In this document: positions 59,459-59,623 of the stretch, in pieces
How positions within the stretch are numbered: the first letter of the stretch is position 1
How the letters are laid out: every line of letters starts with the position of its first letter
Assembly (NCBI RefSeq): GCF_055900595.2
Contig: NZ_CM148325.1
Length of the DNA stretch: 64,000 nt
Strand: one strand, 5' to 3'
The notes under the pieces: model-generated
Told to the model about the DNA's origin: nothing
What the model saw: the letters and a program-made list of their open reading frames with translations, nothing else
The model's database searches: none
Translations under genes and position numbers: made by a program

Positions 59459-59511
59459 AGTTATTTCCTTATTCTTAAGCAGGCGAAACAAAATCAAACG
59501 TTGAGCATAGT

Positions 59512-59530
59512 CCTTCCCCTTACGGGAAGG
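59512..59530. promoter_or_regulatory. CueR (MerR-family) operator in cueO promoter
   Basis: Perfect dyad CCTTCCC-CTTAC-GGGAAGG, about 55 bp upstream of the cueO start. Confidence 0.7.
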
Positions 59531-59623
59531 TCAAGCCGCAGACACAATTTAATCAACAATAATGGTCGTCGCCTCGCTCGCAGTGTGCTAACGTTTATCT
59601 TCTTTAAGCCCCTGGTAGAAGCA

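Follow-up and report, generated by a model that had tools for sequence, protein, structure and literature searches.

A predicted CueR-controlled cueO promoter and its copper oxidase in an apparently divergent Escherichia lineage

The perfect inverted repeat located upstream of cueO in the stretch of DNA analyzed here (64,000 nt; hereafter, the window) is almost certainly the CueR operator of a MerR-type, sigma-70-dependent cueO promoter, at which copper would switch the expression of pre-CueO. The dyad occupies positions 59512-59530 and reads CCTTCCC-CTTAC-GGGAAGG, with two 7-nt arms (59512-59518 and 59524-59530) that are 100% complementary and a 5-nt center; the plus strand from 59510 to 59532 is gtCCTTCCCcttacGGGAAGGtc. 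The original prediction had placed a perfect CCTTCCC-N5-GGGAAGG repeat within 59505-59535, between the promoter elements of cueO. Both parts of this proposal held, as the repeat is present with fully complementary arms and the hexamers TTGACC and TATGCT, 19 nt apart, flank or overlap it. A CueR-controlled cueO promoter together with CueO is an already known, ordinary, textbook arrangement, and the value of the finding lies mainly in annotation, i.e., the CueR-controlled periplasmic copper oxidase arm appears to be intact in a divergent Escherichia lineage.

Anatomy of the cueO promoter

The minus strand, which is the sense strand of cueO, reads GCGGC-TTGACC-TTCCCGTAAGGGGAAGGAC-TATGCT-CAACG across the promoter. 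Its elements are as follows:

59512..59530, no strand assigned: CueR operator CCTTCCC-N5-GGGAAGG, identical to that of K-12 and including the core box CCTTCC-N7-GGAAGG (PMC8169799)
59529..59534, minus strand: -35 hexamer TTGACC of PcueO, the final two bases of which are shared with the left dyad arm
59510..59528, minus strand: promoter spacer TTCCCGTAAGGGGAAGGAC, 19 nt, i.e., the sigma-70 optimum plus 2 nt
59504..59509, minus strand: -10 hexamer TATGCT of PcueO; a -10-like hexamer recurs at this 19-nt spacing in the cueO promoters of five further Enterobacterales
59459..59497, minus strand: predicted 5' UTR of cueO, its start placed about 7 nt past the -10 hexamer
59466..59470, minus strand: Shine-Dalgarno sequence AAGGA, 7 nt before the ATG at 59458

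The dyad thus lies inside the -35/-10 spacer and overlaps the -35 hexamer by 2 nt, and the spacer belongs to the supra-optimal class of 19-20 nt. The arrangement TTGACC-19 nt-TATGCT occurs once in the window, with 0.01 occurrences expected. The start codon of cueO lies 45 nt past the end of the -10 hexamer, and transcription probably begins near 59497, judging from the position of that hexamer. A standard sigma-70 scan, which takes only spacers of 16-18 nt, returned no promoter around the dyad on either strand. Because of this restriction, the blank result does not speak against a promoter; it is the result expected of a MerR-type promoter, since the spacer measures 19 nt. The extended -35/-10 spacing of MerR-type promoters, on which the original prediction depended, is therefore present.

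In the window, CCTTCCC-N5-GGGAAGG was matched only once when up to 2 mismatches were allowed (0.14 matches expected from shuffled sequences), so that the motif scan for CueR operators that had been suggested as a check singled out this dyad. It is also the sole site in the window within 1 mismatch of the CueR core box, CCTTCC-N7-GGAAGG (PMC8169799). By an arithmetic estimate, the chance of an exact match to the 14 bases is about 2e-4 per 64 kb. Irrespective of sequence, perfect 7-N5-7 dyads are not rare (13 in the window versus approximately 4 expected), and the significance of the dyad therefore lies in its specific sequence and position, not in its symmetry alone.

Two further roles for the site were considered and rejected. 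On the plus strand, TAGTCC and AAGCCG stand where a -35 and a -10 hexamer would be, so the dyad does not form a bidirectional promoter that also serves yacC; the sigma-70 scan detected no canonical sigma-70 promoter for yacC. A search for RNA elements found no Rfam family at gathering score near 57.7-59.7 kb.

Conservation and genomic context

The yacC-cueO intergenic region (165 bp) is identical to that of K-12 MG1655 at 164 of 165 positions, and the single SNP, at 59555, is located 21 nt upstream of the -35 hexamer. The -35 hexamer, the dyad, the 19-nt spacer, the -10 hexamer, the 5' UTR, and the Shine-Dalgarno sequence are all the same as in K-12 PcueO. The 51-bp core promoter (59495-59545) was recovered at 100% identity in K-12 and in 5,258 of 5,424 E. 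coli records, and the locus is annotated as cueO/yacC in essentially all of the 5,426 complete E. coli genomes. The coding DNA of cueO differs from that of K-12 at 83 of 1,551 nt (5.4%), including 71 differences in synonymous codons and 12 others; at this rate, about 8 differences would be expected over the 165-bp intergenic region, versus the 1 observed. The core promoter is hence near-invariant over approximately 5,400 E. coli genomes despite a coding divergence of about 5% in the strain represented by the window. The exact cueO allele and locus of the window were found only in 8 complete RefSeq genomes labeled "E. coli." The near-identical stretch includes approximately 90 bp upstream of the -35 hexamer, and there is a small chance that the intergenic region holds regulatory information beyond the CueR operator, e.g., a yacC promoter or a second regulator common to the two divergent genes.

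The whole window (1-64000) is colinear with positions 132.5-196.5 kb of K-12 in reverse orientation, with most aligned blocks being about 90-96% identical; its source appears to be a divergent lineage of Escherichia and may be a cryptic clade. Hypervariability specific to cueO was rejected, as its 5.4% divergence is in line with the whole window, where identity to K-12 is about 90-96% except in one fimbrial block. In the yad fimbrial operon region (approximately 39100-46800), identity to K-12 is 66% over part of htrE and the remainder is unaligned, and the mrcB-fhuA stretch (27978-31829) is 89.9% identical; these blocks look like divergent or replaced alleles of surface proteins. The intergenic regions speE-yacC (59972-60076) and can-yadG (53763-53870) match K-12 at 100% identity, with flanking genes diverged by 2-5%; both appear to be strongly constrained, as does the cueO promoter region. 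The Rfam matches at gathering level in the window, all on the minus strand, are the CssrA sRNA (5766-5875), the t44 RNA upstream of rpsB (6714-6800), and the HtrA (degP) 5' UTR thermometer (15635-15680). The cueO-gcd intergenic region (57707-57907) contains two REP-like units, because of which a 1.9-kb query gave a median of 12 hits per E. coli genome, and the following hairpin:

57869..57886, minus strand: candidate terminator hairpin GCCCGGA-TCTC-TCCGGGC followed by ATTATTCT, read by eye, 22 nt past the cueO stop

The terminator scanner did not call this hairpin, which is a possible but weak terminator candidate.

Copies of cueO are also carried by 10 genuine plasmids (96-273 kb; hits H105-H114) of E. 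coli and E. fergusonii from pigs, pork, and humans. All 10 copies begin at one identical junction, which corresponds to window position 59507, inside the -10 hexamer, and are without the -35 hexamer and the dyad. In the one plasmid inspected, pTBE6_2_blaCTX-M-55 (NZ_CP154402.1, L127 4001-5600), two copies of ISVsa5 enclose cueO together with a fragment of gcd. The plasmid copies would stand outside CueR control because both the -35 hexamer and the CueR dyad are missing, and it looks as if a single mobilization event uncoupled them from it. The remaining 9 of the 19 PLSDB records with cueO were not accepted as plasmids: they are 0.4-4.9 Mb in size (four at 4.8-4.9 Mb) and have the full yacC-cueO context, and therefore look chromosomal.

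Beyond E. coli, we scanned one representative genome per species (298 Gb) for the exact pattern TTGACCTTCCC-N5-GGGAAGG; at least 120 stretches carry it, versus approximately 9 expected by chance (arithmetic estimate). Among the matches listed (127 in 120 loci), the downstream gene was CopA-like in 66 cases, CueO-like in 10, and CueR-like in 11, so that a CopA-, CueO-, or CueR-like gene is adjacent in 87 of these 120 loci. The identical -35-plus-dyad string stands beside copA-, cueO-, or cueR-like genes in Alpha-, Beta-, and Gammaproteobacteria. The site precedes a cueO orthologue (63-97% amino acid identity) by 65-110 nt in Escherichia albertii, Citrobacter werkmanii, Rahnella bruchi, Yersinia artesiana, and Pantoea sp., and a -10-like hexamer occurs there exactly 19 nt past the -35 hexamer (TATCCT, TATGCT, TAGGCT, TATGCT, and GATGCT, respectively); the intergenic flanks of these five sites are unalignable. 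Since the pattern search itself fixes the dyad columns, independent evidence across species is limited to gene context, spacing, and the -10 hexamer. Throughout Proteobacteria, the -35-plus-dyad string reliably marks copper-responsive promoters.

The CueO protein and its methionine-rich insert

The promoter precedes an open reading frame for a multicopper oxidase with the following features:

57908..59458, minus strand: cueO coding sequence, 516 amino acids plus stop, periplasmic multicopper (cuprous) oxidase, assigned by identity to K-12, NF008205, and PDB 1KV7
59375..59458, minus strand: twin-arginine (Tat) signal peptide, residues 1-28 (MQRRDFLK...AVFA|AE); crystallized mature chains start at residue 29
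58250..58396, minus strand: Met/His-rich insert, residues 355-403, with 14 Met and 5 His, identical to that of K-12

The protein is identical to K-12 CueO (b0123) at 508 of 516 residues (98%) without gaps, scores 979.4 bits against the NCBIfam CueO equivalog NF008205 (cutoff, 525) with residues 1-516 covered, and matches crystal structures including 1KV7 and 3OD3. The eight substitutions relative to K-12 (V11I, I52V, A54T, S126T, S191N, A323S, T333A, and A464T) are conservative, and none falls on a ligand. All 12 copper ligands are at the K-12 positions, i.e., the type-1 ligands H443, C500, H505, and M510 and the eight histidines of the trinuclear cluster, in the numbering of the 1KV7 literature. 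The four residues of the labile substrate-copper site (M355, D360, D439, and M441) are also present. Because the protein is 98% identical to the characterized enzyme, it is presumably active as a cuprous oxidase.

The Met/His-rich segment that had been noted in CueO corresponds to residues 355-400 of the 516-amino-acid frame at 57908-59458 on the minus strand. Methionine makes up 29% of the insert, versus 5.6% of the whole protein, and the insert differs from that of K-12 at 2 nucleotides, both synonymous. The proposed association of this segment with Cu(I) agrees with work on the identical K-12 domain, which recruits Cu(I) from chelated forms (PMC11494321). Under anaerobic conditions, deleting the Met-rich domain makes little difference, catalytic activity being what counts (PMC12510620).

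A comparison of segment length among strains, another of the suggested checks, was carried out with a 351-base query on a spread of 25 E. coli genomes. No length change was detected in 24 of these 25 genomes (351 bases aligned to 351, no indels). The exception, E. coli L37 (NZ_CP034589.1; L003 1447-2979), has a cueO annotated as a frameshifted pseudogene with an internal stop and 81.5% identity over the Met-rich region, which reflects either a real loss or a low-quality assembly. The insert is 49 amino acids long in the window, in K-12, and in E. albertii and 61-69 amino acids long in the orthologues of Citrobacter, Rahnella, Yersinia, and Pantoea; all of the variation falls in the C-terminal Met/His/Gly-rich loop, while the N-terminal helix MDPxLDxxGMxxLMxxYG is conserved. 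This range among genera agrees with published descriptions of larger Met-rich domains (PMC12041951), such as that of Hafnia alvei CueO (PDB 8R4F, PMC12041951), which has the same fold and insert position as the CueO of the window. The insert is a standard feature of the CueO family and no peculiarity of this strain, with no change in length across the Escherichia sequences examined and a greater length in other Enterobacterales.

Copper switching, alternative readings, and related promoters

The sequence anatomy, the identity to K-12, and the conservation within and beyond E. coli were established here, and the mechanism is drawn from studies of K-12. For the identical K-12 sequence, CueR binding and Cu(I) activation have been shown (PMC9396075), PcueO is copper/CueR inducible in experiments (PMC9396075, PMC12510620), and a PcueO-lacZ fusion is copper inducible (PMC9396075). 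CueR binding and activation are also credited to Outten 2000 and to Yamamoto and Ishihama 2005, as cited in PMC8169799, and PMC4507017 speaks of "many" CueR sites. By analogy with the identical K-12 sequence, we infer that CueR binds at the site in the window and activates it in response to Cu(I). The hexamers TTGACC and TATGCT, 19 nt apart, would be too distant and out of phase for RNA polymerase, and a CueR dimer on the spacer dyad would keep the promoter closed without Cu(I). Cu(I)-CueR, or the Ag(I) or Au(I) form, would kink and under-twist the 19-bp spacer, thereby realigning the -35 and -10 hexamers for sigma-70 RNA polymerase and turning transcription on (PMC8169799). The transcript would yield pre-CueO, which would be exported in folded form through the Tat pathway. 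In the periplasm, CueO would oxidize Cu(I) at the type-1 center to Cu(II), the less toxic form, with O2 reduced at the trinuclear cluster, and the Met/His-rich insert (approximately residues 355-403), which would cover the type-1 site, may capture Cu(I) and feed it in.

The original prediction had also regarded the copper homeostasis module as intact, which stands for cueO and its promoter; the word must be limited to the cueO arm, because cueR and copA map outside the 64-kb window (about 370-377 kb from cueO in K-12), and our reading presupposes that the genome encodes the regulator elsewhere. This location, with cueO at 137 kb and cueR and copA at approximately 509-514 kb in K-12, leaves some room for a circuit that is dead in spite of an intact operator and cueO, i.e., one in which cueR is missing or defective elsewhere and cueO is silent or expressed at a basal level only, as does the origin of the strain from a divergent lineage (approximately 94-96% identical to K-12). 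Such a loss seems very improbable, as the core promoter is perfectly conserved and by far the most changes in cueO (71 nt versus 12) affect synonymous codons, a pattern that points to continued selection on a working circuit.

Nor do we give much credence to the idea that the dyad is used mainly by another MerR-family regulator, such as a second, GolS-like sensor of Cu, Ag, or Au. Cu/Au sensors of this family bind very similar dyads, and the pattern scan placed the motif, among the matches listed, upstream of many CueR-like paralogues across Proteobacteria. However, the sequence in the window is that of K-12 PcueO, which is described, with PcopA, as a known CueR target, and deletion of both promoters abolishes the CueR-promoter FRET signal (PMC9396075); moreover, no MerR-family gene was noticed in the open reading frames listed around cueO. 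It is hardly credible, finally, that the palindrome arose by chance or is purely structural (e.g., part of an RNA hairpin or REP-like element) and plays no part in regulation. Although perfect dyads of this geometry are fairly common in the window, this exact motif is rarely expected by chance, is placed precisely in the 19-nt spacer, shows almost no variation within E. coli, and is found again before copper genes of distant bacteria, and no Rfam family reaches gathering score at the cueO locus. Context and conservation data effectively refute this last possibility, and a CueR operator, against which nothing in the sequence speaks, remains the reading that we prefer.

As a CueR operator, the dyad compares most directly with that of K-12 PcopA (TTGACCTTCCCCTTGCTGGAAGGTT-TAACCT), the other CueR-dependent promoter of E. 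coli, which was used in the CueR-DNA crystal structures 4WLW/4WLS and in cryo-EM complexes. Like PcueO, PcopA contains the core box CCTTCC-N7-GGAAGG and a TTGACC -35 hexamer fused to CCTTCC (TTGACCTTCC junction); its spacer is also 19 nt long, with the dyad in the same register relative to the -35 hexamer (PMC8169799). Unlike in PcueO, the seventh base pair of the PcopA arms is noncomplementary (CCTTCCC...TGGAAGG), and the symmetry instead runs outward (ACCTTCC...GGAAGGT); the -10 hexamers are TAACCT in PcopA and TATGCT in PcueO. In several Burkholderiales genomes (Achromobacter and Paraburkholderia), TTGACC flanks the dyad on both strands (TTGACCTTCCC-N5-GGGAAGGTCAA), at the following sites:

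L048, 116-142
L053, 1875-1901
L081, 11926-11952
L082, 2043-2069
L108 and L111

This organization suggests back-to-back, overlapping MerR-type promoters with one common operator. The cueO site of the window differs from these Burkholderiales sites in having TTGACC on one strand only. More broadly, PcueO resembles other metal promoters of the MerR family (Pmer/MerR, PzntA/ZntR, and the CueR/HmrR-type operators of Alpha- and Betaproteobacteria) in that a dyad lies in a spacer of 19-20 nt and activation proceeds by DNA distortion, while the dyad sequences and the metals of the other regulators differ from those of CueR.
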